A stretch of 61,256 nt of DNA, filler included, from Aduncisulcus paluster (GCA_024181965.1; 6 parts of 6 records of this genome joined end to end with filler, not necessarily neighbours in it); one strand, 5' to 3'. Numbered from the whole stretch's first letter, positions 6,774 through 61,256 are shown. Notes: generated by a model not told the origin, from the sequence alone. Numbers and translations are program-made.

Positions 6774-7341
6774 AGTAAATTTTTTATGCTTATCAAATAC
6801 TGGATATTGCAAAAAACAGTGCAAGTTACGATTTTTGATCTTAGACCAACAATATGACAAAATTCAATGAGTCGATGATATTTACAATATTCACAGATTT
6901 CAATTGCAACTTATCGGCATATTTTGCCACCTTATAATCCAATATGTTAACAAAACTCAGAGGTAGGAAGCGATTTTGTGGCAGGAGTGGACTCACAAGG
7001 ATGGCATGCAATATATGGTGCAAAGGAAAAGTTAATATACTTTAATTTATATAGTATACAATATTACTTTCCAAGAGTGTCAATCGGGGGTTGTGAGTTT
7101 GGACATCATCTTTTTCGGCGGTAAAAACAAATGGTATGTTTACTATATGTTACATCTTTTATTAAATGTACATTAAAGCATATGTTAATTGGTTTCTTCT
7201 TATTATACTAATTATATTGTGCTCTTTGGTCGTTTTGTCTTTTTCTCGGACTTTTCTCTCTTGATATTCGCATTATTGTTTGATTATTGATATCATGGTT
7301 TTGTTTGTTTTTATTATACATAATATTCTATCTCTAGTCAA

Positions 7342-13937: not shown

Positions 13938-14037
13938 NNNNNNNNNNNNNNNNNNNNNNNNNNNNNNNNNNNNNNNNNNNNTTAATTAATTAANNNNNNN
14001 NNNNNNNNNNNNNNNNNNNNNNNNNNNNNNNNNNNNN
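13938..14037. other. Artificial scaffold linker
   Basis: N44-TTAATTAATTAA-N44; a six-frame stop spacer. Confidence 0.97.
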
Positions 14038-23448: not shown

Positions 23449-23548
23449 NNNNNNNNNNNNNNNNNNNNNNNNNNNNNNNNNNNNNNNNNNNNTTAATTAA
23501 TTAANNNNNNNNNNNNNNNNNNNNNNNNNNNNNNNNNNNNNNNNNNNN
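23449..23548. other. Artificial scaffold linker
   Basis: N-TTAATTAATTAA-N. Confidence 0.97.
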
Positions 23549-27759: not shown

Positions 27760-28312
27760 TAGTGGCATACTTTGAAATCGTGACGTACTGTATGACTGGG
27801 TACGTGAAAAATTTTAGGTACGTGGGTACAAGAGAATATCTAGATGAAAGAGTGAAAGCTTTAGAAAGAAATGCCAATTATTTCAAAGAATCTTGTTTCT
27901 TTCTTTCACTTGATGTGTTGCGAACTTCCGAATCACCAACACGATTTGGCGTTTTCACCGTTTTTGAGAAAGGTTGTGTGAAGATTCTCAAGGATTCAAC
28001 CTCCTCAGGAATAATTCCCTACACTCAAAAGGCTCTCAAAGGAAAAGCCTTGACTTATCTTTCTATTCCTCCATCTGGAGCCCAAGTTGAAAGAGTTTTC
28101 TCAACTTATAATGATGTGTTGGATAAGAAAAGGATGAGGATGAGCCAAAAAACAAAGGAAATGTGCCTTATTAGTGCTTCAAATGGTAAAAAATAAACTG
28201 AATTACCGAATATAACTTATTATCTTTGAAAATATTAGGTACGACAGATAGGTACGTGAAAATTTACTCAGGTACGTGGCAAAGTACGTGAAAACAAAAT
28301 GTTGGTACGCCA
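27760..28312 (+). mobile_element. Internally deleted hAT element
   Basis: ALTYLSIPPSGAQVERVFSTYNDVLDKKRMRM dimerization motif; GTACGTG motifs clustered at both ends; imperfect termini TAGTGGCATAC / GTACGCCA. Confidence 0.65.
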
Positions 28313-28313
28313 T

Positions 28314-30445: not shown

Positions 30446-30941
30446 AAATTTTTAGTATTATCCGAGTCGTTTCAAAATAGTAATTTATATAATACAATAA
30501 AAAATTCTTTATTAAAAATAAGCTTATATCTCCGAATTTTAAATTCCCAAAAAACAACAACTCATTGGATGCATACATCTCAGAACTCAATCTGTCGCTA
30601 TTGCATTGGGTGACCTTCAATACCATGATTTCTATGAAATATCATATCTTCTTCCTTGTTTATCCTCAAAGAATGGTTTAGATGAATGTTTTGTTTATGC
30701 GACGACATATAAAGCGCACTATCATAGCTTATTAAGTAGAAATTACCGTTCGTGGATAGATGATCACAATTCGACGATAAATCTCATTGTAAGTCTTTAA
30801 AAGAAACATCGAAGGAAATAATTAAATGTGGTGATTCAAAAACAGCAGTATGTATTCATATGTTTCCTCAACACTTTAAGGAGATGATGTAATGATATGG
30901 GACACCACAGGTCATCGACTCTGATCTGGATGAGAGACTAA

Positions 30942-35000: not shown

Positions 35001-35100
35001 NNNNNNNNNNNNNNNNNNNNNNNNNNNNNNNNNNNNNNNNNNNNTTAATTAATTAANNNNNNNNNNNNNNNNNNNNNNNNNNNNNNNNNNNNNNNNNNNN
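35001..35100. other. Artificial scaffold linker
   Basis: N-TTAATTAATTAA-N. Confidence 0.97.
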
Positions 35101-40833: not shown

Positions 40834-40933
40834 NNNNNNNNNNNNNNNNNNNNNNNNNNNNNNNNNNNNNNNNNNNNTTAATTAATTAANNNNNNNNNNN
40901 NNNNNNNNNNNNNNNNNNNNNNNNNNNNNNNNN
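40834..40933. other. Artificial scaffold linker
   Basis: N-TTAATTAATTAA-N. Confidence 0.97.
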
Positions 40934-43185: not shown

Positions 43186-45939
43186 CTAAAAAAGTCCAAT
43201 GAGATAATATATCTTTTCTTTTGTTCTTTTATCTATTCCTGGATGATCTTTGTCTCCCCTTTCCAGTACGTTTTCGGCATATTTCCGACAAGATCCTTTC
43301 CCCTTCTCTTGATCTATTGCTTGCCAATCACATACCATCTCAATGATATCGTAATCTGTCATGTTAGTAAATCGACCATCATACTTTTCAACGTGATGAG
43401 TATTACTAGCAAGGTGATGTTTAATAGCTCTACCGACAATATCTTTGATAAATTTGTTAGGATATTCGTAATCTTGACATCCAAAATTCTCTCTCATTCG
43501 ATAGAAATGTGTTAGCCAGATATATGGGATTCTTTCTTCATCTTCGAACTTTGATTGATCGTGGTGTTCAATTTGAGCCATAAGAATTGGGAATTGGTCT
43601 GGGGAAATGTTAATAGGGCTTGATGAAGACTGATCCTCATCATTTTCGAACTCTTTATCAGATTCTTTTCTTTTGACAGCTGTATCAAGGGAAAAACAAG
43701 AGATGATACGTTTACAATTATCAATAACCCTTTCGATATGTTTCTTTGTTCTTGTAATGAAATACTCTTCCATGTCCTGTGAATAGTCAAATATTGATAT
43801 TTCTTCCCTATTTTGGAAACAGGTGTTTGTATAAAAATGGGGAAGAGGACAATGCAAGTAACCTAACAAATTGAAATATTCATTTTGAGGGGAGAATAGC
43901 CAATGAGACATTTCATATTCATGGAGAAGAAGTTTTGCTGTGTGAAAAAGAGTTCGTGACACTGGGAAATTCATCAAGAATGCAGGAAATCTCTTCGATG
44001 GGAAATGTGAACAAGATAATCTTTCGGCTATATAATATCCATCAGAACTTAAAATTTTATCTTTTATAATGAAATGTCGTTTCCAAAGATATTCATTCAA
44101 ACAAACAAATTCATTCCGATAGATCATTTTCAGAATTGATAGGTGTGAAAGGTTTTGAAAGAGATCATGAAAATCAATATCCTTTCCTTGATCATGGAGA
44201 TCTTTATGTTGAAAAAATGAATGCTGAACAAAATATCCAATAGAAAAAAGAGTCTCAAGAGAAAATTCTGAGCCAAACATAAGGCTATTAATAAAAGGAA
44301 CAAAAACACTAACTTTCCCATCACACAGATGATTAGCCTTCTCTTTCAAATGAATATCATCATCACAAGAAAGATCGTCAGAAGAGAATCTAATAAGGGA
44401 TTCTTTGGACCTTCCATCAATTGAGAATCTTTTTTTACCAGGTTTGGTTTGCGGGCAAGGAGATTGTTGGTGGTTAGAACTCAATAAAATTCCCTTTAAA
44501 GGTGATACTGTTGTCAACTCTAAACATTTCTTTTTAATCTCTGCCATAATAAGCCGACTTCCAACAACCTCATGACTTGAATCCAGAAACTTCTTAACCT
44601 CTGCCAAACTAGATAGAGCTTGAACTTCCTTCAGTCTATCACTTATGTTTATAATAAATGAAAATTGAGGATCACGGCCTCGAATGCATATTTGGTAGAG
44701 TTTATACCGATGATCGCACCCATCGGATGTTGATTCAGAAGAAGATTTCGAAGTTTCGTAGTAATCATCATCTCTGCGATCTCTGCAACTCAATGAATAT
44801 GTGGATTCATCTAGGTCAGCATTGGAATCCTCAAGGCAGTATATTTCATTTCTTATCGTGAACACTTTACAGAATTGCACATCAATTGGGAAATCCCACT
44901 CTTCACTCGCCTGAAACATATTCTTAAATAATCCGATGTAAGTTGATGTTGAACAGTTGTACACCCGAAACTCTGCAGGTGCACGCACTGTGAGTTGGAA
45001 AGAGAATATCCCACATTGGGGAAAATACTCGACAGGAGGTGGGAGATAATGTTGGATGGACTCACTGGGATCACCGTTGCATTGATGGCATATTGAACAT
45101 AGTAGTAAACCCCGATCCTGTAATATAGAAGAAATGGATCGAATTTCTCGATATCCATCCAAATTATAGTCAAAAAACCTACCACACGAAGAAAAATGTG
45201 GCGAGTCAGAATTTTCAATCTTAAATGGAAGAATATACGGATTAAGTGGATTTTTGATATCTATGAGTACAATTACTGTGTCGTGAAGTCCGCGATATGT
45301 AAAAGCAATAAGAGGAAGGTGTGGATGCACATCCAACCGATCCCCAGAGCAGCCAAGGGTTAATCCCCAAATATGATTTCCAAAAATATCAAAAAGGCAT
45401 ATCGTTTCGCCAAAACTGTTCGGTGAACATGAGATAATCCAACAAGGAATTGTACAATTTTCACAAAACACAGCAGAAAAAATGATTGCTTCCATTTCGA
45501 AAACCATCGGAGATGATGAAGCAGGATGAAATATTATGGTTGTGAGATCAATATCATTGCCTTCAATAAGATCCCTACGAGGATATTCAGTGTAAAGCAT
45601 ATGAGTCGATGAGTGTGCACAATAAACTTGTGAAATTGGTTTCAAACTTTCATATCTACATTCTAAAGTTTGTTTACGCAAATTAAAACATAAAATCTTG
45701 GCCTTATTCCCACAATCTTCATATAATATGAGCAAATCATTATTGTGTTGATCTGATGAAATAGAAATCCTAAGAGGGCAGCTAAATTGGTAAAATCGAT
45801 CCATATTAGAATTATATAGAGAAATAATAGAATTTAGACCGAAAACCTTCTGGAAGACGAGATGGGGACAACTTTCTGGATGAATAGCTATTGCATCTTC
45901 ATTTGATAAAATAAACTTCAAAAATATATATCCATTCAT
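43186..45939 (-). CDS. Protein with a beta-rich N-terminus and a C-terminal DUF5662-like (HD-type metal-binding) domain
   Basis: TKKHIERV...EHHDQSKF..EE...AIKHHLASNTHHVE.Y...MTDYDIIEMVCDWQA. Confidence 0.75.
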   Translation of the reverse strand: MNGYIFLKFILSNEDAIAIHPESCPHLVFQKVFGLNSIISLYNSNMDRFYQFSCPLRISISSDQHNNDLLILYEDCGNKAKILCFNLRKQTLECRYESLKPISQVYCAHSSTHMLYTEYPRRDLIEGNDIDLTTIIFHPASSSPMVFEMEAIIFSAVFCENCTIPCWIISCSPNSFGETICLFDIFGNHIWGLTLGCSGDRLDVHPHLPLIAFTYRGLHDTVIVLIDIKNPLNPYILPFKIENSDSPHFSSCGRFFDYNLDGYREIRSISSILQDRGLLLCSICHQCNGDPSESIQHYLPPPVEYFPQCGIFSFQLTVRAPAEFRVYNCSTSTYIGLFKNMFQASEEWDFPIDVQFCKVFTIRNEIYCLEDSNADLDESTYSLSCRDRRDDDYYETSKSSSESTSDGCDHRYKLYQICIRGRDPQFSFIINISDRLKEVQALSSLAEVKKFLDSSHEVVGSRLIMAEIKKKCLELTTVSPLKGILLSSNHQQSPCPQTKPGKKRFSIDGRSKESLIRFSSDDLSCDDDIHLKEKANHLCDGKVSVFVPFINSLMFGSEFSLETLFSIGYFVQHSFFQHKDLHDQGKDIDFHDLFQNLSHLSILKMIYRNEFVCLNEYLWKRHFIIKDKILSSDGYYIAERLSCSHFPSKRFPAFLMNFPVSRTLFHTAKLLLHEYEMSHWLFSPQNEYFNLLGYLHCPLPHFYTNTCFQNREEISIFDYSQDMEEYFITRTKKHIERVIDNCKRIISCFSLDTAVKRKESDKEFENDEDQSSSSPINISPDQFPILMAQIEHHDQSKFEDEERIPYIWLTHFYRMRENFGCQDYEYPNKFIKDIVGRAIKHHLASNTHHVEKYDGRFTNMTDYDIIEMVCDWQAIDQEKGKGSCRKYAENVLERGDKDHPGIDKRTKEKIYYLIGLF

Positions 45940-46601: not shown

Positions 46602-46701
46602 NNNNNNNNNNNNNNNNNNNNNNNNNNNNNNNNNNNNNNNNNNNNTTAATTAATTAANNNNNNNNNNNNNNNNNNNNNNNNNNNNNNNNNNNNNNNNNNN
46701 N
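46602..46701. other. Artificial scaffold linker
   Basis: N-TTAATTAATTAA-N. Confidence 0.97.
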
Positions 46702-49700
46702 CGATGAATCTATCTTCTCGGATTCGTTGACATATCTTGATATCAGCTCCACATCCATTTCATCGTTCCAATGTATTCCGACTCAGATAGAACATCTTTT
46801 TATGAACAATTGCTCTAATATTCAAAGTTTCAATGATCTGTCGAGATTGACTTCTCTTACTCGGATGGAATTGAGTTCTTCAAATATTTCCAGTTATTCA
46901 TTAACATATTTTTCGTCATTAATGAATCTGATGGAATTAGATCTCTCATATAACAATATCTCCGATATTTCTCCCTTGTATGCTATCACAAGCAACAACT
47001 GGAGTGGTCTTGATTTGTCCAATAATCATATTTGTGGTGATGCTGAATCTTTGCTATATGATATGATTATTTCTGATGTTATTATTGATGTTTCTAACCA
47101 AAGTTGTGTGTGTTCCTCTGATGACCTCGGAACGACTCCACTTGCTTCCAACAAGGTCTGTAGTGAAACGAAGCCTGGGTCTAACACATGGTATGTTGTG
47201 TGTGCCAGTGATTCATACACGTCATACACATCTGCTGAGGATTTTTCATGTACTTCCCCAGATAATGGTGATGGGACATATGGATGTTCTGGCGGGTGTG
47301 AGTATGGATATGAGTGCAGATATGATTCAGATTTATATTCAACTTCATGTCAGCAAGTGATCGTCGATGAGAACTTGCATGATTGTGTTGCTGATATGTT
47401 TGGCACAGATTCTAATGGAAATGATGATTATTCCCATCGAACAAACTCAACTCCACCACTTTTCAGTGTGGCCTCCTTGAAGACTCTTGTGACCGTTGAG
47501 AATATTGTAACTGGTGAGTTTTCTCCCATTCTCTCATGCTCTGACAGTTTGGTGTCTGATTTATCTGGTGTTGAACATCTTGGTGATATTACTGAAATCG
47601 ATTTGAGTAATAATACCTCACTCTCGGATCTCTCACAAATGTCAACTTTGACGCATCTTGAGAAACTTAATCTGAACAATGTTTCTCAAAACTCAGTGAT
47701 CGATTCTTTGATGTATGATCTTCTTCCAAGCCTGCAGCAATCCCTCGTGTATCTTGATGTGTCCACGGTCGTTCAGAATGATTATGCTGGCATTTACATT
47801 GATCCTTTCTTCTCTGTTGAGACAATAGAATATTTATATATTGCTGGATGGACTGGTCTTACCTCCATCGTTCCTAGTGGTAATTCACTGCCATTACTTC
47901 TCACAACCCTTGATCTCTCATATACTGGAATATTCGATATTTCTTATCTGGTATCAGCTTCCGATCCACCTCCTCTGGTTGATTTGCGACTCGAAGGATG
48001 TGATCTATCCGGATTGTCCGTCCCAACAAGTAGTGATTCTGGGGTATTTGCAATGTTTGCTGGCTCTCTCAAATATTTGAATGTTAGTTATACCTCACTT
48101 CCAACCGCTTCATTTGTTGCCGAAGATTCTTTGATGGTTGAGCTATATGCTGATGGAAATGGTTGGACTGATATGTATGAACTCAAGAACATGACATCGC
48201 TTGAAAGGTTGAGTTTGAGGGATAATTTGATCACAGATCCTTCCCCTTTATACAATATTTCTCCTTCTTTGACATATCTTGATTTATCCTATAATCCTAT
48301 TTGTGGATCTAACATTCAAAATAACCTTCAATCTAAAATTTTGGGTATCTATGAATATGAATTTGAAACTGAATATGAAATTGAAGTCATTTTTACACCC
48401 TATATAGATGGATTTACTTGTCCATGTGGAGAGGATTTCCAAGATATTGAGGCATTAGAAATTAACAAAGTCTGTAGTGAAACTGCAAATGGGTCTGGAA
48501 ATTGGAACATTGTTTGTGCAAGTGATTCTTTCACAAAGTACTTTAATTCTGAAACATTTACATGCTCTCAGACTGCTCTTCCTTCTGAAAGTAATCTTTT
48601 CTCCTCTTGTGTGGGTGGCTGTGTGTATGGAGAAGCTTGTCGAACCCTTGATTATTCTTCTTCTTCCCTCTATAACATAGGTTCGTGTTATTCTGTAATT
48701 GTTGATAGCTATCTTCATTCCTGTGTTGCTGATCTTTTCCCAACTGATTCAGCCGATATTATCATTGAAAACTCGACAAATGCTGAAGGAGATCTTGTTG
48801 AAACCATATTATACGGTGTGAGTTCCTTGAAAACTCTTGTAACTAATGGTATATATGATGAATCTTCCGGAAATATTGAATATTCGCCAATATTGACTTG
48901 TTCCGGACTTGGAATTATTTCCATTGATGGTGTTGAACATTTGACTGGTATTTCACAAATCGATCTGAGTTCGAATGTTATTACCGATGTTTCCCTTCTC
49001 AAATCGATGAATAACATTGAAATCCTTGATATTTCTGATAATATTGATATAGATTCACTTCCTCCTCTTTACTTTTTGTCTGCTTTATCATATTTAGACT
49101 TTAGTTCCACAAATGTCTCCCTTCCTTCAGATGTGGAAGCCTTTGACTATTTCCCAGCTTCTATCGAAATATTGATTGCAAACAATTCAAATGTGACCTC
49201 TGAAGGATTTTCCAAGTATATAGCAGGATATTTATCGTCATTAGTGGAGCTGTATTTAGCTGATACATCGGTCTCTGATATTTCTTCCCTTAGCTATTTA
49301 CAACGGACTCAGATAACTCACTTGTCGTTGGGTGGCAATGGTAGTATCGTTGGTATTGATGGAATCATTCCGATGATGTCAGTTTTGGAGTATCTTGATC
49401 TACGAGCCTGTGAATTATCAGAATTACCCGATCTTACTGCCAGTAGCCAGACACTTGATTATCTTGATATTAGTGATAATGGTAATATGTACTTTGTTCA
49501 TAGTATTTATTCACAGGAACTGAATAACATTTCTACTTTGAACGTCTCCGGGTGTTCATTATCAGATGTATCACCTTTGTTCTATCTTCCAAAGCTTACG
49601 AATGTTGATATTTCCTCAAATTGGATATGTTCAGGAATTGAAGAATCATTTGACAACTTAATGGAAAAATTCCATAATTGTTCTCTTTCTGAATTTGTAT

Positions 49701-51577
49701 TTGTCTCTGATAACCAAGAATGCTCCAGTGATTGCCAAGAAATGATGAATGGGGGTGTTTCTCCGGTAGTTGTCAAAGATGTTGATGTGGTGAATACAAC
49801 AAATGGAGATGGCATTTCAAGCTTTATTGAGAACAAAATTTGTGTTGAATCATATCCAACAAGTGGAATATGGAATATTGTATGTTCTAGTAACTCAATT
49901 ACGAATTATTCCTCGGCTTCTACGTTCGAATGTGTGGATAGTATTGATTCTGTTGAACCATGTCCTGGTGGATGTTCATATGGTGAAGAATGTCGTCTAA
50001 ATGATGATAATTCTGGAGGTCAATGTGAAAATGTGATCATTGATGACACTCTTCGCCGGCACGTGGCTCAATATCTCCTTGGATATTCTGATTGGGATGC
50101 AAAAGTTAGTATATCGGCGCTAAAATCTGTTCCTTCTTCCTCTAGTTTGCATTTCAACTCAGATGACCTTTCATCAACTTATGAACTATCAAATATTCAA
50201 GGTATTGAGCATCTTGTTCAGGTTTATGAGATTGTTATGACAGGACATTCACTGCTGTCTGATGTCTCGCCAGTGTCTTCTTTGACTAACCTTGAACATC
50301 TCGATTTGTCAGATAATAATCTTGTTTCAAGTGAATTTATCTCGTGTCTTGTTGATTCCCTCACTTATCTTGATATAAGCAACAATCTAAACATTACTGA
50401 TTTTGCCAGTTCATCTTATATCGGAAATGATAGTTATTTGACAACTGGTGGTTATCCTATTTTGGAATGGCTCAATGTTAGCAACACTTCTATTACTGAT
50501 TTGTCTGCCTTATTCGAGCTAACAATATCTGATTCTGATGATTCTGAAATTCTTGAGGATCAAAACATGCTGACATATCTCAATATTTCAAATCTTACTC
50601 TTGCTTCTTCCAGTAGAAATCAGTTGGGTTTGCTTCCTAATTTAACTGAATTACATGCTTCTTCTTGTAATCTTAGTGATATTTACTCTCTTTATCAATC
50701 TAGGAATCTTATCTCTGTTGATCTATCGAATAATCAATTTAACGATCCATCTCCACTGTTTGCTTCGGTTGATTCGCTGAAAACAATTGATATTAGTTCC
50801 AATAAGATTTGTGGGATTGATGAAGATTCTCTAATTCAAATGTTACCTAATTTGACCGAGATAACTATCTCCCCTCAAAATGATACATATTGTCTTGAAT
50901 GCAGCCCATCTGCTTCCATAGTTGAAAACACTTTGTGCAGTGAAACTTGGGAAGGAAATGAATATACTTTGTCGTGTACATTTTTGAGTATTAAACATTT
51001 GATATCTAGTGACTCGGAGGAGTATTCGTGTGATAATATTGATGATTCAGCTTCATATTATCAGACATGGTTAGAAACCGATCAACATTCACACAGATGC
51101 ATTCTCGATTACAATGGGAACTATTACAAGGAGTGTATTCCTGGAAATTATGGTGATGATTGTATGTCTGTATGTCCACTATCCCCTCTAAACAATACTC
51201 TCTGTTCCGGTCTTGGTGTGTGCAATCCTCTCACTCACTCGTGTCTGTGTGCATGGGGATTCAGCGGAGATGCATGCCAGTGGAACATGTGTGCCATTGG
51301 ATATGGTGAGTATGGACATGACTCTGAATGTTTCGACCATGGATCGTGTGTTGCTGGTGATTCCTCCAAGAATGAGCCTCCATTCTACTGTTCGTGTAAG
51401 GTAGGTTGGGGTGGAATGTTCTGTGAACGTGATATTTGTTTGTGTAGTCCTGAGTCTTCGTATGGATGTGCCACGATCAGTGATGGGTCCAGAGCTTGTA
51501 AATGTAAGGAAGGGTGGTACGGAAGAGCATGTGAGAGGAGATATTCGGGTTCACAGAGGCCATATAGTTTCTTTTAA
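46702..51577 (+). CDS. Modular LRR / Cys-rich / EGF-like extracellular protein; 5'-partial
   Basis: Many LxxLDLSxNxIxDxSPL repeats, four Cys-rich cap modules and C-terminal EGF repeats (CSGLGVC..C.C.WGFSGDAC). Confidence 0.88.
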
Positions 51578-51601
51578 CTGAGAATTTCTTTTAATTAATT
51601 C
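51203..51601 (+). repeat. 399-bp cassette present as an inverted copy at 58708-59106
   Basis: Near-identical, with about 8 substitutions counted by eye; covers the last 124 codons, the stop and 24 nt of 3' UTR. Confidence 0.93.
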
Positions 51602-52209
51602 AGTAAATTGTAACATTTAAAAATTGTAATTCCAAATGGAGAACAGTATACGAGTCTCGCCAATTAAGCATTTATTTCCTAAATTTGGCGATGGATGCCC
51701 GCGGGCACCCCGAAAATTGAAATTATCGAGTGTTAGTATGATGGTATTACAATGTTGTTTATTTATTAAATTCTGTAGAACAGCTAACACGAGATATTTC
51801 GAAAAAAAAAGGTTGCATAGTTTCTGAATCTTTGTTCCACGAAAATGATTCTTCGAGCTCATCTCAGGATTTGAGAAGAGGAATTTGTACACATTGACGA
51901 AATCAAAGAATAAAGCAATTTTAGAGCACTTCAGTTGCTTTTTCTTTTCTNNNNNNNNNNNNNNNNNNNNAATTTGGCGATGGATGCCCGCGGGCACCCC
52001 GAAAATTGAAATTATCGAGTGTTAGTATGATGGTATTACAATGTTGTTTATTTATTAAATTCTGTAGAACAGCTAACACGAGATATTTCGAAAAAAAAAG
52101 GTTGCATAGTTTCTGAATCTTTGTTCCACGAAAATGATTCTTCGAGCTCATCTCAGGATTTGAGAAGAGGAATTTGTACACATTGACGAAATCAAAGAAT
52201 AAAGCAATT

Positions 52210-54975
52210 TTAGAGCACTTCAGTTGCTTTTTCTTTTCTTTTCAGAATACTAATATCTTTCTTGAGATCTGATATTTCACCAAGCATGGAGGACACACAT
52301 TCACCAATAAAAGATGAAGTGTCTCGATGCTGATTCTGACTACTATTAAAACTATCATTTAATTGTAGTCTGTGAACTTCACGAATAGGAGACGAGAAGT
52401 GTATTGAAGAATCAAGTGTCAAAGAAGATGAGAATGTACTGATCATTGTATCAATTACATCCTCCCTCTTCTCTCTCCTCTTCGCTTCTTTTCTTTCTTT
52501 TCTCTCTTCTTTTCTTTCTTTTCTCTCTTCTCTTTGGTCTATGGGAGTTGAGAGCAAGAATTGTTCAACACTGGAAGAAAGAGTTGAATAAGAGTTCGCA
52601 TGATGATGAGATTTAAGTGTTCCGCTCTTCTTCTCTTTTCCTAATCGACCAACCACTTTTCTCTTCTTTCTCATTGTTCTATTTTTGGATCTACCCTCAG
52701 GAGTCTTAGAAATAGATGTTGATTCAAAATAATCATCAAGCATTGGATATACTTTCGTGGTCTTCTCTCTTCCTTTTCTTTTTCTTTCCTTCATAAATAA
52801 CTTTTCTCTTTCTCTCCTCTCTCTCCTTCTCTTCCTTTCCATCTCTTCTTTCTCACACATAATTTTATCATGAGCCCCAACAGAACATCTCGGAAGAGAA
52901 ATCATGCCTTTTTGGGGAGTCACGTTTTTACATTTCATACACATATCTCGAATATCTTCATGTTTGTATAGTTCGTCTCGCTCTGTGGATACCACAAGAC
53001 TGGAAGAACCATAAATAAACTGTTTTGAAGGTTGATTGGGTGTTCCATGCTGCGATCTACGAGAGGATCGAGGAGTTCTGGATAATAGCGTTAAAGGAGA
53101 AGGATAATGATACGCGTCATCACCAAGAAAATCGTCATATTTATCAGCATAATTGCTTCCACTCAGATGGGGGTCAGGAGAAGAGGTAGAATCAGAAATA
53201 GACATTTCACGGGCGTGTTTATCAATGAATCCGTCAATAAAACTTGTGTATCGATGTATTCTTGCCGAATCATCAGATAAATCCTTTGTTTGCAAAGCAT
53301 TTGATCGAATTGCGGTTGTCGTGGAAGACTCTGCAGGAAGGAAAGGTGGTTGTCTAATAATACCTTCTTTGCCCAGAGTTTCTTCTTCTGATCTCTTACT
53401 TTTAATGACAATACTTTTAGTAGAATCAATTGAATTGAAATAATCGGACCAGCCTTCAAAGGTCTCAGACTTCTTGTCAATCTCCTTGGGAATAGTTGAT
53501 GGCTGCTCTATTTCCTCAGAGATTTTGGATGTTTTGGATGCAGAAATAATATCATTTTGTTCTTCATTATCAATGATTTGAGAAGAAATGCGATCAGGGG
53601 GTTCAAGGATCGAAGTTTGTTGTGAAGTTACCTTTTCTTCTTTTTCTTTTTCAGTTGTTTCTTTTGTTATATTAATAGAAGACTGAGAAACAACTGGAGT
53701 CATTGAAAGAGTTCGTATGACTGAATGGTCATGACTTTGATTTGTTGCTAATATTGTCAATGATGGAGTAGAACTCTCTCTCTCTCGTTGGATGGTCTCT
53801 AATGAAATTATTGTTTGATGATCTGGACTAAGATTAGTGTTAGGTTCTTCTTCCTTTTGCTCTTCTCCTTTTTCATGTACATGTATTATTGCAGCACCTT
53901 CTTGAACCTCTTCACCAACATCATCTTCTTCAAGAAAAATATGGTCAATATTACCAACGTTATCAATACTCAGACATCTAATATCGTCAAATAATACATC
54001 TTTCTTCCCTTCTCTCTCTCTTTCTCTCTTTCTTTCTCTCTTTCTTTTCATGATTGGAGCAGAGACAGATCGCTTGGTTCCATCTCGAGTCGTTGGGGTC
54101 TTTTCTTTCTCATCTTCGGTTTTCTTATCTCTTAATAAAGATCGTTTGGATAATCTATTTTTAGAATTCTGAGATACAATACTGATTCCAGTTGTACCAG
54201 AAAGTTGTTGTTCAACACTGGAAATAGGATAAGAAGAAGAGGAGGAGGGAGATTTAAGAACGCTCATTGGAATTGCAAATGACTGATATTTTGCTTTTGA
54301 ATCAAGAGAACCATTTTCTTGTATCTGTCGACTGTCAATCTGTTTCTTTCTGAGATTATTATGGCTGCGGCAATGTTCATTGTAACTTAGTGCACTCTTG
54401 GAACGCCTCAAAACAATTGATTTTGACTTTTTTGGAACTGATTTTCTCTGAATTGATTTTCTAAGGCTTGAATGTGATGTTTTTGTTTTGGAAGATGATA
54501 AAACAGAAGAAATGGCAGGAAATAAAGTTTTAGGATATAAAGAAGAAGCGATTGATGTATATTTCGATTGTTTTTTGCGGATTTTTGTTGAAGAATGACT
54601 ATTAGGCGATTTTTCGAGCTGCTTCTGAATTTCTGGGTATAATATTGGTTTGAAATGAGATTTTGACACTGTTACTGGCATTACATGTGCTGTTATAGGT
54701 ATTTTAAAACTTTCAGTCGAAGATTTTATCATAAATTCATCCTGGTATGATCCATGAAACAACGTGCGTAATAAGACGTTAAGACGATAATAATTACCAT
54801 GATTATCTAATTTAATATTCAATAATGATGAAGGCACACATTCAATGGAAAATTTATCGGAAAACATGGATCCAGACTGCATTTTAATGTAAATGTGTTC
54901 TACATATTGTTTTTGATAATTTAAAGTTCCAAAATCAATAGATAGTGGATATATTAGCAATCCACCACGATTCAT
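52210..54975 (-). CDS. Hypothetical protein with an N-terminal ASH/Ig-like domain and a long disordered charged region
   Basis: P.SIDFGTL...I.I.....L.V.L.....GSYQDEF.I......KIPITAHV resembles ASPM-SPD2-Hydin domains. Confidence 0.65.
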   Translation of the reverse strand: MNRGGLLIYPLSIDFGTLNYQKQYVEHIYIKMQSGSMFSDKFSIECVPSSLLNIKLDNHGNYYRLNVLLRTLFHGSYQDEFMIKSSTESFKIPITAHVMPVTVSKSHFKPILYPEIQKQLEKSPNSHSSTKIRKKQSKYTSIASSLYPKTLFPAISSVLSSSKTKTSHSSLRKSIQRKSVPKKSKSIVLRRSKSALSYNEHCRSHNNLRKKQIDSRQIQENGSLDSKAKYQSFAIPMSVLKSPSSSSSYPISSVEQQLSGTTGISIVSQNSKNRLSKRSLLRDKKTEDEKEKTPTTRDGTKRSVSAPIMKRKRERKREREREGKKDVLFDDIRCLSIDNVGNIDHIFLEEDDVGEEVQEGAAIIHVHEKGEEQKEEEPNTNLSPDHQTIISLETIQRERESSTPSLTILATNQSHDHSVIRTLSMTPVVSQSSINITKETTEKEKEEKVTSQQTSILEPPDRISSQIIDNEEQNDIISASKTSKISEEIEQPSTIPKEIDKKSETFEGWSDYFNSIDSTKSIVIKSKRSEEETLGKEGIIRQPPFLPAESSTTTAIRSNALQTKDLSDDSARIHRYTSFIDGFIDKHAREMSISDSTSSPDPHLSGSNYADKYDDFLGDDAYHYPSPLTLLSRTPRSSRRSQHGTPNQPSKQFIYGSSSLVVSTERDELYKHEDIRDMCMKCKNVTPQKGMISLPRCSVGAHDKIMCEKEEMERKRRRERREREKLFMKERKRKGREKTTKVYPMLDDYFESTSISKTPEGRSKNRTMRKKRKVVGRLGKEKKSGTLKSHHHANSYSTLSSSVEQFLLSTPIDQREERKERKEERKERKEAKRREKREDVIDTMISTFSSSLTLDSSIHFSSPIREVHRLQLNDSFNSSQNQHRDTSSFIGECVSSMLGEISDLKKDISILKRKEKATEVL

Positions 54976-55662
54976 AAATTCATATATTGATATAACAAGG
55001 AGAAAATTCGATTTTTAAAGAAAAATACTTAATAATAATAATAATATATGCTTAAATAATATAGATTGTATATATACGCGATTTTATTTAAAGTGCAGTT
55101 TATTTTATTTTGAAAATATGCTCGGATCATGCTTAATTTCAAAAATATCATATCCAAAGGGATACTTCATATCATCCACAATAGTTTCTTTGATTTCTCA
55201 TAATTATGTGCATAATAGCCATTTATTGGGTAAGATATTTGCATTAAATCAAACAGAATCGGAAATTTTAAAAGTTTTGTTTTGTACAGATAACCAAGTT
55301 TTATTTTTCACTTTTTTTCGTTAAATTTTTTATTATTTTTCAAATTGGTATCGAATTTACCTTATATTTTAGCAGCGGATAATCTTAATTCGATATTTTT
55401 TTCAAAATTGAAATTTTAGGACATTCTATTAATATTTATTCTATTTATTGTTGGAATATCAAAATTGTAACAATTATTTAGGGGTTTTTCTAAAATACAA
55501 TTCTTGAAATCGTTTTTTATTTTTCAATTTCCAACCTATTAGTTCAATCGTTACCGTGTTAGTTATCTATAAAAGCTTTGATAATCCTTTTAAATTACAT
55601 TTCGTTTTTATATTTTTCTGCTTATCAGTACCCCTTCTAGCCACTAGGTCTTATTATTATAA

Positions 55663-56607
55663 ATGCCAACTCAAGGGGTTATAAAATCTATTTTAGTTTC
55701 TAATGGCGAATCATGCCCCATTTTAAATAGTTCTTCGTTGGTTATTCCAATTAATTTGGATAAATCTGATGCTATTTTTGGATCTCTACCTTCTGTCAAT
55801 CGAAAGGATCAACTTCTCCAAATGCTCGCAACTACGAGCTCGATCCCTCAAAAAGATGATATTAAACATGCATTAATCAAAGAATCAAGTGGAATTGTTG
55901 ACTTTGAACAACTATTTATTCATTTTTTGGAACCGTCACTCGTCGAATCAGTCTTAATATCTGTATATGGGAGTGACTGTGCCCCAAAGATAATTTCTAT
56001 TCGATTTTATGGTTATAAAATAGATAAACGAGAAGAAAAAGAAGAGAGAGACGGTCGAAAAATAAGAGAAATACCTTCTCACTCGGCTATTTTTGGATTC
56101 ACTGACGATCCAGCTACAAAAATTACTCCATTTGATCAAAGTCTCAAATTTGATCGCATTTGTGACTCTAAGTATTCCAAATCTATTGGATATGTTGATT
56201 ATTTTATTCCTAATGCTCCCAAATATGAATACCAGTGGTATTTACTCCCTTCGTGTGGGATTGATGATTTTATGATTACTCGTATTGATATTATCAAAAG
56301 AAGGACATATGGTGGGAAGTATTGTTATCTTGAGCATTCGATTAGAGTTTTGAGAAAGAAACAGGGAGATGAAGAGATGTCTTCTGCTTTATGTATGAGT
56401 GAAACAACTGACAATATTCCATCTATTAAGCAGAAAATGGCGAGGAAAGAAATTCAAGAAGATGATATTGAGCCACATGAAATATTATCATTATCTCAGT
56501 ACTCTTCTTCAGAAGAGTCCTCAACTAAGTCGTCATATTCTGAGGACCACAGTGTTGATATCCTTGACATCGATCAACCAAATATAACAACACACTCACT
56601 CTCCTCT

Positions 56608-56639
<32 letters not shown>

Positions 56640-57537
56640 TTCCTCTTCCTATTCCTCTTCTTCCTCTTCTTCAATCATGGATTATCGAACAAATTTAGAA
56701 GAATCTATTCGGAGAGAGTATCAAAAAAAACTTGAAATGATGGATCAGAGGGTTAAATGTCTTGAGAAACAAATATTAAGTTTAAATTCAGATAGCCAGA
56801 GTGGTAAATTTGATGATTCGCTTTCTTCCCCATCCATAAATCCATTGCTTTCTCACACTCATAAATCCAGATCTCTGATTTCCTTTGGTTATGTAAAAAG
56901 TGGAAAACATCAATGTACATTGAAGCATAAAGATTATTATGTCCATAAGAAGAAGAAAGGAGAAGAAGAAGAAGAAGAAGAAGAAGAAGAAGATTGTTGT
57001 GAGGGAAAACCTGAAGAAGGAGCGACAGAAGATATCCAATCTACGAAATCGAGAAAGTGTATTCGATCACTATCTCCTGTATCAACCCCATCTATTGTTT
57101 CTCAACAGAGTAGTTCTAAAAATAGAAATACTAATTCACCATTATGGGATATTCAATATCACTCTCTTCCAAAAGTTCTTATATCTGTTCCTTCCCTTGT
57201 GAGCTTGGATGATGAATTCATGGAAAGAAGAAGAGAAGAGAAGGAGGGGAAATGTCAATCTCTAATCAGGTCTTGTTTGTGTGATGATGGATGTTCATTG
57301 AAAAGGAGTTCTTCATCTCCAAGGAAAAAGGAAGATAAGGAAGGAAAAAGAGAGGAGGAATTCCGAGGTAAGCAAAAAAGACCGTATCTTCGACCTAGAA
57401 ATAGAGATCGTTCACGCTCTCTTCCTTCTTCTTCCTTTTCTCGCGATGATACACGCTTTCAAAAGAAAATGGCCGATTTATGCTTCGAATACACTGGAAT
57501 TCACGCAGATAGAATTGATATTGTTCCCAAAGAATAG
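55663..57537 (+). CDS. Hypothetical protein, possibly with a divergent copy of the ~170-aa repeat domain; poly-Ser/Glu tail
   Basis: 624-codon ORF; FEQLFIHF..P..VESVLISV.....PK.I.IRF...YQWYLLP echoes the repeat consensus. Confidence 0.65.
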
Positions 57538-57607
57538 TCTACATCCATTATTAGTGATAATTTTGTTTGTTTTCTCAGTATAGGGTTAATTGCAAATAAT
57601 TTCTCAT

Positions 57608-57901
57608 TGATTAATCATTAATAATCAACGTTAAAACTTTTAACTTAAAAGTTTTAGGCTAAAACAAACCTTAATTGAATTAAGGTTACATTTTACTAAT
57701 TTAATTTAAACTTTAAATTTTAAAGCAAATAAATTCTGAATTTGCAAATTCAATGAATGAATTTAATTCATTGAATTGACTCAATTGTCATTAAAGAGCA
57801 ACCATGAGGAGCTCCTCATCCCGTCTTGTACCATATAAATGCCACGTCACATCACAACCTGTTATATTTATTTATTTGCAATGATGCATGACGTCGTCAT
57901 G
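57608..57901. repeat. Cluster of short perfect inverted repeats
   Basis: Examples: TAAAACTTTTAA-C-TTAAAAGTTTTA, AACCTTAATT-G-AATTAAGGTT, TGAATTTGCAAATTCA, ATGAGGAGCTCCTCAT, CATGACG-T-CGTCATG. Confidence 0.8.
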
Positions 57902-58731
57902 TGACGATATACAAATGCAGACTCGTTAATAAGTTCTCCAATTTTCACCATTACAATTAAATTAAACGATAATTCACAAAAAATACCTTTAAACCAGCCT
58001 GGCCAAATAAGAAAGGCTTTTCAAAAAACAGAATATACAGATCATATAATGATCATAAGAACAAGGAATCAACTTAAACAAATTCATAAACAATTGAACC
58101 ACTTCGATATCTTTTCAGTGTAGATATTGCGAGACAGTGGCAAATTTTTCGTAAACGGAGAAAATCAATAAAAACAGACAGAAAATAAAGTAACAGCAAA
58201 TCGTAAAGAATTTATCAAAAAAATAAACACGCTGCCCAAATCATGGGCAAATCAATCAACCAATAATATTTTGAGAGCAGAATAGTCGTCAGATCGATCA
58301 AACTTTCGGGAGAAGTAACAATCATAGATGTAAAATACAATAAACAAGATAGAACATTAATTCTATTCAAAAAAAAGGAACGATAGAGAAAAATAAATAA
58401 AATAAGAATTAATTAAAAGAAATTCTCAGTTAAAAGAAACTATATGGCCTCTGTGAACCCGAATATCTCCTCTCACATGCTCTTCCGTACCACCCTTCCT
58501 TACATTTACAAGCTCTNNNNNNNNNNNNNNNNNNNNCCCAAATCATGGGCAAATCAATCAACCAATAATATTTTGAGAGCAGAATAGTCGTCAGATCGAT
58601 CAAACTTTCGGGAGAAGTAACAATCATAGATGTAAAATACAATAAACAAGATAGAACATTAATTCTATTCAAAAAAAAGGAACGATAGAGAAAAATAAAT
58701 AAAATAAGAATTAATTAAAAGAAATTCTCAG

Positions 58732-61256
58732 TTAAAAGAAACTATATGGCCTCTGTGAACCCGAATATCTCCTCTCACATGCTCTTCCGTACCACCCTTC
58801 CTTACATTTACAAGCTCTGGACCCATCATTGATCGTGGCACATCCATACGAAGACTCAGGGTCACACAAACAAATGTCACGTTCACAGAACATTCCACCC
58901 CAACCTACCTTACATGAACAGTAGAATGGAGGCTCATTCTTGGAGGAATCACCAGCAACACACGAACCATGGTCGAAACATTCAGAGTCATGTCCATACT
59001 CACCGTATCCAATGGCACACATGTTCCACTGGCATGCATCTCCGCTGAATCCCCATGCACACAGACACGAGTGAGTGAGAGGATTGCACACACCAAGACC
59101 GGAACAAAGAACGTCACTTGAAGGGTGTGTTGGGCATTCATGGGTACAAGCATCTCCATACCAAATGTATTGTGGATTGGCGCCATCTTTATCACTTGTA
59201 TCCACCACACATTCACATTCACCTGTTGTTGTGTGACACTCACCATGTCCACCACACAAAACCCCATCCGAAGAAATTGGGCAAATATTCGCATCACAAT
59301 ACGAATCGTTCCAACCATGTTCGCATGAACAAGAAGCAATCATCGTTTCCTCATTTAACTCACAAACACCATGGCTCGAAGCAGAGGTGCCACATTCAGA
59401 GCATGCTGTATCATTTCCAAGTATATCACGATAGTCAGGGTGTGTTGCAGGATCAATGCATGTCCCAGAAGACGAACTCAGAGCAAGACCATGTGGAGCA
59501 CATTCACATGTGGATGATGATTCATTCGCATATGCAGAATAGCTTGCGGTTGTGGGATCAGAACTATCGGAATAAGAATAATCCCTACCACAAGGATAGT
59601 CTTCAGCCTCTCCATCAGAAGATACAAACACGTCGGTGGGGATTGTTGAGAAACATGATGATCCATACCATCCTGAGGAACATTCACATACAATAGCTTC
59701 AGAAGAGACAGAAGAAGGATCAGAAGAGGATGGATCAAGGAAGGATCCAACAGAACATGTTCCATTTCCTCCACATGAATCGTCATCGGAACAACTCAAT
59801 TGGCAAGCTGAGCCATAATACCCAGACTCACACACACATATATGGGTGGCAGCATCACATGTTCCACGAGATGATCCACTGCACAAACCAAGATCGTCAG
59901 AAACAGGACAAATGGACGAGCAATCAGTCCCATACCATCCATCAGAACACTCACAGAATGGCAATGATTCATCACTAGAGTCAGAGTCAGCATCATACAC
60001 ACATGTACCACGCTCACCACCACAATTGGAGCATGCAGAAGAAGAAGAAGAAGAAACTGAAACACATTCTCCAGATGAAGTGTCTTCATAGTATCCTGAC
60101 CCACAGACACATACATATTCACTTCCATCATCATCTGCAGAATCATTGACCTGACACACAAGATGATCTTGTGAATAAGAACAGAATATAGAGGAAATAG
60201 AAATGGGTTTAGATCCACATGGAGAAGTTGTATCCTGGGAAACATCTCCAGACGAGCCATCCACATCTCCGAACACAACTTCAACGCCATCATTTCCATC
60301 ACCTGATCCAGATATATCCCGCTCACAGATATCAGCGAGTGAATTCAAACACTCAGACACAGTCGACCCACAATCAAGTCTATTGTCACTCACATCAACA
60401 TATGCGATTGTGGAATTGGAATCATCAACGACTTGTTGCAACAGAGCAAGGTCAGAGATGGAGTTGTCACTCAGAGTCAGATGTGTCACACCAGAGAGAC
60501 CAGGCTGGAGTGAAACGACGGTAGGGTCAGAGATAGCATTGGAGGACAGATCAAGATGTATCAGAGTGGATGACAATGGATACACTTTCGTTCCATCATC
60601 ATAACTGCTGACACACTGACCACTGCACATGGCAATGTTGTTCAGCAAAGAAGTGAATGATGACAGATCGGAACCAATGGAATCATCACTCCCACTGATT
60701 TCCAAGGAACGCAACGAGCACAGACCAACACAGTACGATTCAGACGTTCCATTCCAGCGTGAAGTATCAGACTCAAGATCCATCTTCAGAGCACCGACAG
60801 CATCCGTCAATGTGCTCAGAAGTGATACATCCATGTTTTCAAGCGAATCAAGCTCAAGCACATACAACGAGGATAAGGATGCAATGGGTGATAGATCAGA
60901 GATGAGAGTGTTCCCAGGCTCAAACGAAAGGATCTCAAGGTGCTCGGCATATTCAAGCCCTGAGAGGGAAGATACAGTGTTTGGGATGGTGAGAGATGTG
61001 ATGGTGGAGAGATCATCCACAGTCAGCGAGGAGAGTACGCTCTCATCGGAACAAGTTGAAGATGAAGAAGATAAATTATAAAATATCTCACACACTAGCT
61101 TAATAAGATTGGTGTCCATTCCAAGAGAAGACAGTGTAATTCCAATTTCAAATTCACAATAGTCTCCAGATAGGGAAGATTCGCAAAGACAAGTGTGGGA
61201 TTCGGTATCACAAGAATAGTTACTGCACATATCACCATACTCATCAAATGGACAAG
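58732..61256 (-). CDS. LRR plus multi-EGF Cys-rich extracellular protein, paralog of 46702-51577; 5'-partial
   Basis: LRRs (LIHLDLSSNAISDP), about ten EGF-like repeats and the same C-terminus ...ACERRYSGSQRPYSFF. Confidence 0.88.
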   Translation of the reverse strand, partial: CPFDEYGDMCSNYSCDTESHTCLCESSLSGDYCEFEIGITLSSLGMDTNLIKLVCEIFYNLSSSSSTCSDESVLSSLTVDDLSTITSLTIPNTVSSLSGLEYAEHLEILSFEPGNTLISDLSPIASLSSLYVLELDSLENMDVSLLSTLTDAVGALKMDLESDTSRWNGTSESYCVGLCSLRSLEISGSDDSIGSDLSSFTSLLNNIAMCSGQCVSSYDDGTKVYPLSSTLIHLDLSSNAISDPTVVSLQPGLSGVTHLTLSDNSISDLALLQQVVDDSNSTIAYVDVSDNRLDCGSTVSECLNSLADICERDISGSGDGNDGVEVVFGDVDGSSGDVSQDTTSPCGSKPISISSIFCSYSQDHLVCQVNDSADDDGSEYVCVCGSGYYEDTSSGECVSVSSSSSSACSNCGGERGTCVYDADSDSSDESLPFCECSDGWYGTDCSSICPVSDDLGLCSGSSRGTCDAATHICVCESGYYGSACQLSCSDDDSCGGNGTCSVGSFLDPSSSDPSSVSSEAIVCECSSGWYGSSCFSTIPTDVFVSSDGEAEDYPCGRDYSYSDSSDPTTASYSAYANESSSTCECAPHGLALSSSSGTCIDPATHPDYRDILGNDTACSECGTSASSHGVCELNEETMIASCSCEHGWNDSYCDANICPISSDGVLCGGHGECHTTTGECECVVDTSDKDGANPQYIWYGDACTHECPTHPSSDVLCSGLGVCNPLTHSCLCAWGFSGDACQWNMCAIGYGEYGHDSECFDHGSCVAGDSSKNEPPFYCSCKVGWGGMFCERDICLCDPESSYGCATINDGSRACKCKEGWYGRACERRYSGSQRPYSFF

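Follow-up and report, generated by a model that had tools for sequence, protein, structure and literature searches.

How two genes that differ almost throughout their length came to end in nearly the same 399 nt is the question raised by this locus of Aduncisulcus paluster. The window, i.e., the whole 61,256-nt stretch of DNA analyzed, consists of six contigs glued together by linkers. A 44/12/44 linker geometry is present at five places, and the letters of the linker were read at 46602-46701 only, directly before the scaffold that carries both genes (46702-61256, 14,555 nt), to which P0004 also belongs. The features discussed below are listed in Table 1.

Table 1. Positions of features on, and directly before, the scaffold carrying genes A and B, counted from the first letter of the window.
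Feature	Position	Strand	Basis or remark
Artificial linker (44 N, TTAATTAATTAA, 44 N)	46602..46701	.	Sequence read; unrelated contig before, A/B scaffold after
Gene A (P0001), class I body, 5' end cut by scaffold end	46702..51577	+	ORF, translation
Lead-in, diverged homologue of gene B, first part of boundary EGF-like module	51152..51202	+	Alignment
Constant cassette copy A	51203..51601	+	Alignment, translation, direct count
Post-stop segment, 24 nt, A = B; other copies' contigs diverge at 51601	51578..51601	+	Alignment, run contigs
Assembly artefact, 269-nt exact duplicate (51682-51950 = 51971-52239)	51682..52239	.	Around 20-N gap 51951-51970
Intervening ORF, 921 aa, low-complexity, unrelated to cassette	52210..54975	-	No family match (Pfam)
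Intervening ORF, 624 aa, Ser/Glu-rich, unrelated to cassette	55663..57537	+	No family match (Pfam)
Assembly artefact, 282-nt exact duplicate (58235-58516 = 58537-58818)	58235..58818	.	Around 20-N gap 58517-58536
Constant cassette copy B	58708..59106	-	Alignment, translation, direct count
Gene B (P0002/P0004), class II body, 5' end cut by scaffold/window end	58732..61256	-	ORF, translation

In gene A, an LRR block with a Cys-rich knob after it occurs four times (knob motifs: aa 143, 581, 1037, and 1402), with the constant tail last. Its LRR profiles were clear in Pfam (LRR_4 126.2 bits, LRR_8 86 bits; cut-off 27). Gene B is composed of a short LRR region and many EGF-like modules; LRR_4 reached 22.9 bits, which is under the Pfam cut-off, and EGF profiles matched the body (EGF_Teneurin 33.1 bits, cut-off 24.3; EGF_2 30.2 bits, cut-off 22.1). 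The reading frame is open to the scaffold start in gene A and to the window end in gene B. The two genes lie tail-to-tail, about 6.5 kb apart. Their bodies are 27% identical over 250 aa, and a repeat search of A against B revealed no long similarity besides the 399-nt block. Another contig of the window harbors a Gypsy-type element with reverse transcriptase and RNase H ORFs (28299-30613).

Alignment and direct count gave 391/399 identical nucleotides for the two blocks, in agreement with the equal lengths and about 8 differences described in the initial annotation. Over the 372 nt of coding sequence, the Nei-Gojobori method divides the differences (51304, 51343, 51394, 51433, 51446-51448, and 51480) into 5 synonymous and 3 non-synonymous steps, and the amino-acid changes are the S/D and S/N reported there. 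Its observation that identity stops 24 nt beyond the stop codon (51575-51577) also held, with 19/60 identical positions in the 60 nt that follow. The proposed start at an EGF border was misplaced: identity begins within an EGF-like module, between Cys 1 and Cys 2, and recognizable homology extends further upstream, where the lead-in matches gene B at 30/51 nt. The coding part of cassette A comprises 124 codons with 17 Cys. Together with one upstream Cys, these form three 6-Cys EGF-like modules followed by the tail ERRYSGSQRPYSFF, and the block encodes the last about 2.8 modules, this 14-residue tail, and the stop codon, followed by the 24 nt. The three successive 6-Cys units are directly readable, and the cysteines are invariant in 5/5 aligned tails. 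The Pfam profile EGF_DL_JAG (cut-off 27) scored 27.5 bits in A (aa 1551-1570) and 25.9 bits in B, the latter under the cut-off. An AlphaFold2 model of the 139-residue tail, built from a 5-row alignment, had a mean pLDDT of 33.8 and a pTM of 0.23.

A short-read assembler that threads its way through a high-copy repeat could create near-identity of this kind, or a junction between body and tail. The A. paluster assembly is Illumina-only and was made with MaSuRCA (N50 4.6 kb, 40.4% BUSCO; PMC9933649), and each of the nine 20-N gaps of the window sits between the two copies of an overlap that was left unmerged (exact at 7 gaps, with one mismatch at 2). Two of these gaps are in the A/B region. The 282-nt duplicate consists of 111 nt from the end of cassette B and 171 nt of its 3' flank, so that 58406-58516 is a second occurrence of these 111 nt, i.e., an unmerged contig overlap at the gap. 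The longest difference-free A/B stretches are 101 and 121 nt, within a many-copy family; both the phasing of the eight differences and the linkage of body to 3' flank across the tail therefore rest on read pairs. In addition, one contig stops 11 nt before an A-vs-B distinguishing site. However, the same structures were found in contigs made by another assembler, from a DNA run (X1) and from a run only guessed to be RNA (X2), although these may share data with the assembly and are thus not independent sampling. The body of gene A is joined to the tail without any difference in both (50000-51232 in X1, 50000-51256 in X2), an X1 contig joins the tail to the flank of gene A (51572-51724), X2 contigs link A's own alleles with 0 differences each (51235-51355 and 51404-51480), and the flank of gene B is seen as a loose end at 51601. 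The tail is also carried by five annotated proteins beyond A and B, on five other contigs. We consider an assembly artefact extremely unlikely.

The tail is present in at least six annotated A. paluster genes, which fall into two body types (A, B, P0003, P0005, P0006, and P0007+P0008, a single gene whose parts lie on two contigs). This removes the possibility that only two copies exist. The class I bodies (A, P0003, P0007) are 26-34% mutually identical and the class II bodies (B, P0005, P0006) 79-87%, with about 27% identity between the classes; identity to the body of gene B is 84% for P0005 and 79% for P0006. Like A and B, the models P0003, P0006, P0007, and P0008 are either truncated by a contig end or flagged as partial, and the start Met of P0005 falls within a frame that is still open in gene B, so the N-termini of the family are all missing or doubtful. 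In X1, 206 contig pieces aligned to a 1951-nt stretch, with a summed depth of about 1,300 in body and flank vs 23,660-59,137 in the tail. This is 18-45 times the unique flank, a rough figure that reflects sums over overlapping contigs and not copy number. At 51277, two alleles together had a depth of 47,061.

Among 249 tail matches in a library of 1.84 billion proteins, three had E<=1e-30: P0005, P0008, and P0009, an animal Notch-like EGF-repeat protein. Only P0005 and P0008 matched the whole tail, and P0007 (7.9e-25) matched its first part. The remaining listed matches were 31-46% identical to the tail, and 8 of the 10 inspected carried names or accessions from animal genome records, mostly Notch-like; the nearest named matches outside A. 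paluster were animal Notch-like EGF-repeat proteins (32-38% identity). Two metagenome scans gave no match to the tail. Judged by these searches, the tail as a unit is limited to A. paluster within the libraries covered.

Comparison of the six genes at the protein level revealed conflicts between segments. The tails of A, B, P0003, and P0005, which span both classes, are identical at 119-122/124 residues, while the tail of class II P0006 (97-100/124) and that of class I P0008 (106-110/124) are more divergent. Tail relationships, as read from these alignments, are in conflict with body relationships. The class II bodies are themselves mosaic: in columns 300-400 of their alignment P0005 equals P0006 and B differs, and in columns 623-855 B equals P0005 and P0006 differs. 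In the 12 residues preceding the tail, P0003 and B share 10/12 and A and B 4/12, and P0006 parts from B and P0005 some 95 residues upstream. The 5' edges of high identity are therefore staggered between gene pairs, which does not support a fixed exchangeable cassette. The 3' edge is common. Loose contig ends at 51601 lead into the flank of gene B in X1 and into other flanks in X2; another X2 loose end is found at 51597, and one divergent copy departs at 51575.

Synonymous sites within the block are homogenized. For the A/B pair, the only one for which dS and dN were computed (from the nucleotide sequence; the comparison of the other four genes was at the protein level), dS was 0.069 and dN 0.010 in the block, as opposed to about 0.80 and 0.54 in the 17 codons of the lead-in. 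With so low a dS next to about 0.80 upstream, selection on the protein alone is an insufficient explanation. The step from 30/51 to 391/399 nt moreover occurs inside homologous sequence, as in a gene-conversion tract.

Concerted evolution by ectopic gene conversion is a well-known general mechanism in multigene families. We infer that it is probably also the process at work here, in line with the initial annotation, which had suggested that conversion took place recently within a diversified family. The 399-nt block would be the constant 3' end shared by a multigene family that is specific to the A. paluster lineage, whose members would repeatedly copy this region from each other by ectopic (non-allelic) gene conversion, and the tails of A and B would be nearly identical because of such copying. 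Their tail-to-tail placement at a short distance may favor it. The tracts would begin at varied upstream points and all finish where homology between the copies ends, just beyond the stop codon. The higher GC3 of the tail (0.40-0.42 vs 0.285 and 0.328 in the bodies) is a weak hint at GC-biased conversion.

A common 3' edge and ragged 5' edges would also result if partial reverse transcripts, primed at the 3' end of the mRNA, recombined with paralogues. The Gypsy-type ORFs of the window could be set beside this idea, although they are on another contig, and X2 coverage extends no more than about 75 nt beyond the stop codon. The same pattern is, however, expected when the copies just stop being homologous past the stop codon, neither A nor B has a poly(A) remnant after the block, and the class II bodies have mosaic patches far upstream as well. 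Conversion by way of cDNA is thus very unlikely in our view.

Conservation across synonymous sites and 24 non-coding bases might alternatively reflect selection on the RNA, in which case roughly the final 400 nt of the mRNA would be a shared regulatory target (small-RNA sites, or a localization or stability element). X2 depth is 0 at 51650-51715, where the DNA run continues, so the shared post-stop bases may form most of the 3' UTR, and miRNAs that repress vsp genes have been published for Giardia, according to excerpts of that literature. On the other hand, the tails of the divergent members demonstrate that the sequence is not universally fixed, the mosaic class II bodies are left unexplained, and the predicted structure of 51480-51640 is not above that of shuffled sequences (z = +0.99; 170/200 shuffles fold equally well or better). 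We regard this as quite unlikely.

The proteins encoded by this family are large, Cys-rich, and of LRR/EGF type, and they are probably secreted or extracellular. The conserved tail pattern R-[RK]-Y-S-G-x3-P-[YF]-S-F-F and every cysteine persist in the divergent copies too, which suggests that the constant module may be a piece used in common for sorting or attachment, or as a stalk. As previously noted, the tail lacks a TM helix: the highest 19-residue Kyte-Doolittle mean was 1.58 in 7/7 sequences, and the 14-residue C-terminal end is hydrophilic.

The initial annotation had also raised the possibility of an undescribed variant-protein system. In such a system the constant 3' end would act as a recombination or regulatory handle and a single member would be expressed at a time, as in Giardia VSPs and trypanosome VSGs. 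The family resembles the vsp genes of Giardia lamblia, which shares the lineage Fornicata, in architecture, with a Cys-rich variable N-terminal body and a constant C-terminus in both, here on at least six genes. Excerpts of PMC2996952 describe a 3' end conserved at the nucleotide level in vsp (117 nt), recombining members, and inverted tail-to-tail pairs 2-4 kb apart; in A. paluster, nucleotide conservation includes the post-stop bases. In the Giardia pairs, the excerpts indicate, whole ORFs are identical, in contrast to only the last 399 nt of A and B. The A. paluster constant part is also much longer (124 residues), and the bodies consist of LRR and EGF-like modules. Sections of PMC11437800 define VSPs by >10% Cys and many CXXC motifs; the A. 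paluster proteins have 4.3-9.0% Cys and 1-2 CXXC (6/6 proteins), and they end in ...RPYSFF, with neither a C-terminal TM helix nor CRGKA. The VSP count given for A. paluster in the same sections is 0. As a free-living bacterivore, this organism faces no host immune system that it would need to escape (PMC9933649). Several family members appear to be expressed together, as X2, guessed to be RNA and informative at the population level only, holds the gene A body (depth 258), a P0003-type junction, and several tail variants (326-1,343). The proposal of a variant-protein system is therefore not sustained: we regard it as unlikely, and VSP- or VSG-like switching is not supported by the features tested.

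Trypanosoma brucei VSG genes offer a further parallel, since a conserved region of C-terminal coding sequence or 3' UTR can provide the downstream homology for copying of bodies, according to parts of PMC2900300. In contrast, no expression site, shared upstream or 70-bp-type repeat, telomere, or switching was seen in the A/B scaffold, where the upstream ends of the genes are missing. By description, the family also resembles diplomonad Cys-rich, tenascin-like, and EGF-repeat proteins, i.e., secretory-type fornicate proteins with EGF-like or LRR modules (sections of PMC11437800), and Giardia cyst-wall proteins, which combine LRRs with a Cys-rich C-terminus (excerpts of PMC2867935). The sections of the former survey report few Cys-rich proteins in A. 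paluster (18 CRMP, 1 CRSP) and do not describe the LRR/EGF tail family.

In process, the family matches concerted evolution, with which it shares a sharp identity step in homologous sequence, tract ends that vary, paralogues of mosaic make-up, and homogenized synonymous sites. What stands out here is that the tract unites genes otherwise almost unrelated, and that all copies share a 3' edge 24 nt past the stop. If conversion is the correct reading, the mechanism is ordinary, and a species-restricted family with a shared constant module is what has been undescribed. Unrelated recognition-type bodies, LRR arrays and EGF arrays, would then share one conversion-homogenized C-terminal module in a free-living fornicate, and the shared tail would account for the breaking of the short-read assembly at genes of this family. 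It is a speculative and improbable extension that tens of LRR/EGF genes for surface recognition make up a germline repertoire in this genome, with the homogeneous 3' end as a handle for body shuffling or small-RNA control, and that the VSP-like logic of variable N-terminus and constant C-terminus predates parasitism in Fornicata. If the conversion reading is true, the family would be a natural comparator for the origin of the Giardia VSP architecture and its conserved 3' end.

The copy of the near-identical 3' block (the "tail") in gene A (51203-51601, +) and the reverse complement of that in gene B (58708-59106) were found to be identical at 391/399 positions, with differences at 51304, 51343, 51394, 51433, 51446-8 and 51480. 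Similarity falls off on both sides. Of the 51 nt upstream, 30 are identical, and the encoded peptides remain homologous (GDDCMSVCPLSPLNNTL in A vs GDACTHECPTHPSSDVL in B); of the 60 nt downstream, 19 are identical. The initial annotation had described a near-identical 399-bp block in two divergent genes, with identity ending 24 nt past the stop codon, and both points are confirmed. The block consists of 124 codons, a TAA stop and 24 further bases, and direct reading of the tail with one upstream cysteine gives three EGF-like units of six cysteines each, after which comes ERRYSGSQRPYSFF. Identity had been thought to begin at an EGF boundary, but it sets in inside the first EGF-like unit, past cysteine 1 and before cysteine 2 of that unit. 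By eye, a reassignment of TAA to a residue seems unlikely: A and B stop at one shared TAA, and their similarity is gone 24 nt further on. The motif AGTAAAT (51602-51608), which we take to resemble the Giardia polyadenylation motif, adjoins the block in gene A, but gene B lacks it at the corresponding position. An RNA structure at the 3' end was rejected, since none was predicted above shuffled sequence (z = +0.99).

The bodies of A and B are 27% identical over 250 residues. A Cys-rich knob follows each of the four LRR blocks of gene A (aa 143, 581, 1037 and 1402), and the N-termini of both genes are absent, their frames being open to the scaffold ends. The two intervening ORFs gave no family match at E<=1 beyond chance-level ones and are unrelated to the tail. 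Coordinates and lengths are collected in the table.

Features of the window and tail-bearing protein models outside the two genes
Feature	Position or length	Strand	Description
Gene A (class I body)	46702-51577	+	open to scaffold start; four LRR blocks, LRR_4 126 bits
Gene B (class II body)	58732 to window end	-	open to scaffold end; short LRR region, many EGF-like modules
Intervening ORF	52210-54975	-	low-complexity
Intervening ORF	55663-57537	+	low-complexity
Spacers	13938-14037, 23449-23548, 35001-35100, 40834-40933, 46602-46701	.	44/12/44 geometry
20-N gaps with flanking duplicates	5185, 8889, 10658, 20071, 33647, 34167, 51951, 58517 among the 9	.	208-447-nt duplicate of the preceding contig end
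Duplicate at gap between the two tails	51682-51950 = 51971-52239	.	exact repeat
Duplicate at gap between the two tails	58235-58516 = 58537-58818	.	exact repeat
P0003 (ADUPG1_009079)	857 aa		outside window; tail match
P0005	803 aa		tail match
P0006	725 aa		tail match
P0007	1041 aa		ends within tail; overlapped there by P0008
P0008	153 aa		overlaps end of P0007

The published A. paluster genome is an Illumina-only MaSuRCA assembly (N50 4.6 kb, 25,863 contigs, 40.4% BUSCO; PMC9933649). The window holds five spacers, each of 44 N, 12 nt and 44 N. In the one whose letters were read (46602-46701), the 12 nt are TTAATTAATTAA, a linker with stops in all six frames. The window thus strings together six distinct contigs or scaffolds, and gene order across the spacers has no meaning. 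The stretch with the two tail-bearing genes begins at 46702, right behind the linker, on a single scaffold (46702-61256) that also bears P0004, a protein model of gene B. The contig recorded for P0004 is 14,555 nt long and corresponds to exactly this interval. Both tails are thus on the same scaffold, and ORFs located before 46602 come from different contigs.

Duplicates of 208-447 nt flank all nine 20-N gaps in the window (seven exact, two with one mismatch), the end of the left contig recurring at the start of the right one. These overlaps were left unmerged; they give rise to spurious tandem repeats and may lead to faulty gene models. The duplicate next to gene B comprises the final 111 nt of its tail copy and 171 nt of its flank, which accounts for the additional arm of 100% identity at 58406-58516 (repeat I2). 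After removal of both duplicates between the tails, the two copies lie ~6.5 kb apart, vs 7.1 kb as assembled. The left contig at the gap next to B ends 11 nt short of the last site distinguishing A from B, as expected for an assembly graph branching at a repeat.

Several features were observed elsewhere in the window. On another contig, two ORFs at 28299-30613 (+) encode domains of reverse transcriptase (RVT_1) and RT-RNase H and make up a Gypsy-type retroelement. A 66-nt motif (repeat D11) recurs five times at 496-8313 (+), with 62-74% identity to the reference copy, in a run of large ORFs without Pfam match (809-5236, 5169-6158, 6213-6773 and 7342-8412). An XdhC-like ORF (11045-12313, -) adjoins a short-chain dehydrogenase ORF (8950-10560, -); to find XdhC, an accessory protein of the bacterial type, in a eukaryote is unusual. 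A 917-aa ORF at 43186-45939 (-) carries a C-terminal DUF5662 domain (E = 2e-25).

A search with the tail retrieved five further annotated A. paluster protein models (P0003, P0005, P0006, P0007 and P0008), of which P0007 and P0008 are one gene split across two contigs. The pair in the window is therefore part of a larger family than first noted, and the possibility that only these two copies exist has fallen away, as six annotated genes, A and B included, carry the tail. Their bodies form two classes: class I (A, P0003 and P0007), with a mutual identity of 26-34%, and class II (B, P0005 and P0006), with 79-87%. Tail similarity cuts across these classes: the four tails in A, B, P0003 and P0005 agree at 119-122 of 124 residues, and those of P0008 and P0006 share 106-110 and 97-100 of 124 with them, respectively. 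All cysteines and the terminal pattern R-[RK]-Y-S-G-x3-P-[YF]-S-F-F are kept in every family tail compared.

Contigs from another assembler for two public sequencing runs, X1 (possibly DNA) and X2 (tentatively RNA), were placed on 50000-51950 at 90% likeness. In X1, from which 206 contig pieces aligned to this stretch, depth was ~1,300 on the body of gene A and ~1,270-1,290 on its flank, and summed depths in the six tail bins were 23,660-59,137. Overlapping short contigs enter these sums, which do not represent a copy number. The two alleles at position 51277 total 47,061 (~36x unique depth). For codon 81, depth was 6,928 (~5x unique) for the D variant and 1,396 (~1x) for the P0005-type variant. 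Taken as a rough guide, these depths would correspond to about ten to a few tens of copies resembling the tail. The P0003 model appears to contain three tails in tandem, of which two are truncated, with short, odd peptides linking them. This may be a gap artefact like those at all nine gaps of the window, but the depth of the H-to-Y variant private to P0003 (3,977, ~3x the unique depth of ~1,300) would fit three real tail copies.

The junctions of gene A recur without difference in X1 record 1 (50000-51232), X2 record 9 (50000-51256) and X1 record 7 (51572-51724). Flanks diverge at 51601, into that of gene B in X1 and into others in X2, and also at 51597 (X2) and, for a diverged copy, at 51575 (X1). 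An upstream loose end in X2 at 51199 encodes ECPSHPSSDV, the lead-in of P0003. X2 reached a depth of 258 on the body of gene A and dropped to 0 at 51650-51715. If X2 is RNA, the pattern is consistent with a transcript ending no more than ~75 nt past the stop codon and with simultaneous expression of several family members. In the 3' flank of gene A, ~40 nt at 51729-51768 reached a summed X1 depth of 105,732 (~80x unique depth) and are bordered by loose ends left and right. This is a short, very high-copy element, which occurs only once in the window apart from an artefactual copy near 52025-52064.

How the tail came to be shared can be judged from several lines of evidence. Identity rises from ~60% to 98% within homologous sequence. 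Synonymous sites are homogenised in the tail, with a Nei-Gojobori dS of 0.069 (dN 0.010), vs ~0.80 (dN 0.54) in the 17 preceding codons. Tail relationships conflict with body relationships, and the class II paralogues are mosaic: P0005 equals P0006 against B in alignment columns 300-400, and B equals P0005 against P0006 in alignment columns 623-855. Because these four observations agree, ordinary concerted evolution of the tail by gene conversion is the most likely explanation, in support of the recent conversion initially proposed. Whole-gene duplication followed by divergence of the bodies was rejected, given bodies 27% identical over 250 aa vs a tail dS of 0.069. A mobile cassette would have fixed ends, and the 5' edges differ between gene pairs: for A vs B, the change lies at the codon preceding CSGLGVC; P0003 and B still share 10 of the 12 residues before the tail, vs 4 of 12 for A and B; and P0006 diverges from its sisters ~95 residues upstream. 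Such a cassette is thereby ruled out, and conversion tracts that differ in length fit the pattern. For the shared 3' edge, the simplest reading is that ancestral homology ends there. Conversion primed by cDNA, a less probable route, would produce an identical pattern. GC3 is 0.40-0.42 in the tail, 0.285 and 0.328 in the bodies and 0.255 in the adjacent EGF region of B, a weak hint of GC-biased conversion.

With respect to anchoring, no 19-residue window exceeded a mean hydropathy of 1.58 in the seven sequences examined and their C-termini are hydrophilic, indicating neither a transmembrane helix nor a GPI-type hydrophobic end. The earlier remark that the constant tail has no obvious transmembrane helix thus stands. 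The predicted structure of the tail was unusable (pLDDT 33.8). We infer that the constant module would be a shared extracellular stalk, or a sorting or attachment piece.

Relatives were sought in a library of 1.84 billion proteins, where the tail matched 249 proteins at E<=0.001 and no instance of it as a unit was found outside A. paluster. Three of the 249 reached 1e-30 (P0005, P0008 and P0009, an animal Notch-like EGF-repeat protein). Only P0005 and P0008 matched the whole tail, and P0007 (7.9e-25) its first part. The other matches among those listed were 31-46% identical; ten of the next best comprised six animal Notch-like proteins, two uncharacterised amphioxus proteins and two unnamed ones. 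In metagenome contigs, an exact 30-nt scan found no environmental relatives, and none of 51 pattern matches from a protein-guided scan was confirmed. A search of longer proteins (1471-4200 aa) gave 11 candidates, none significant; this is a weak blank, as the 1616-aa frame of gene A itself was missed. Among the first 15 of 19,221 literature matches for Aduncisulcus with LRR, EGF or cysteine-rich, no paper besides PMC11437800 names the genus.

For A. paluster, the excerpted text of that paper gives 0 variant-specific surface proteins (VSPs), 18 CRMPs and 1 CRSP, with no description of the tail family. Judged by the VSP features in the same excerpts, the family lacks the cysteine content, the CXXC count and the transmembrane helix with CRGKA tail. 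The undescribed variant-protein system suggested initially is not borne out, and a variation system has a low probability. Giardia vsp genes, as described in part of PMC2996952, have a conserved 117-nt 3' end, include inverted pairs 2-4 kb apart and undergo recombination, and the Trypanosoma brucei VSG system has a 3' homology region with an architectural likeness to the tail (section of PMC2900300). The likeness of the tail family to both is real, but it is an analogy of architecture.
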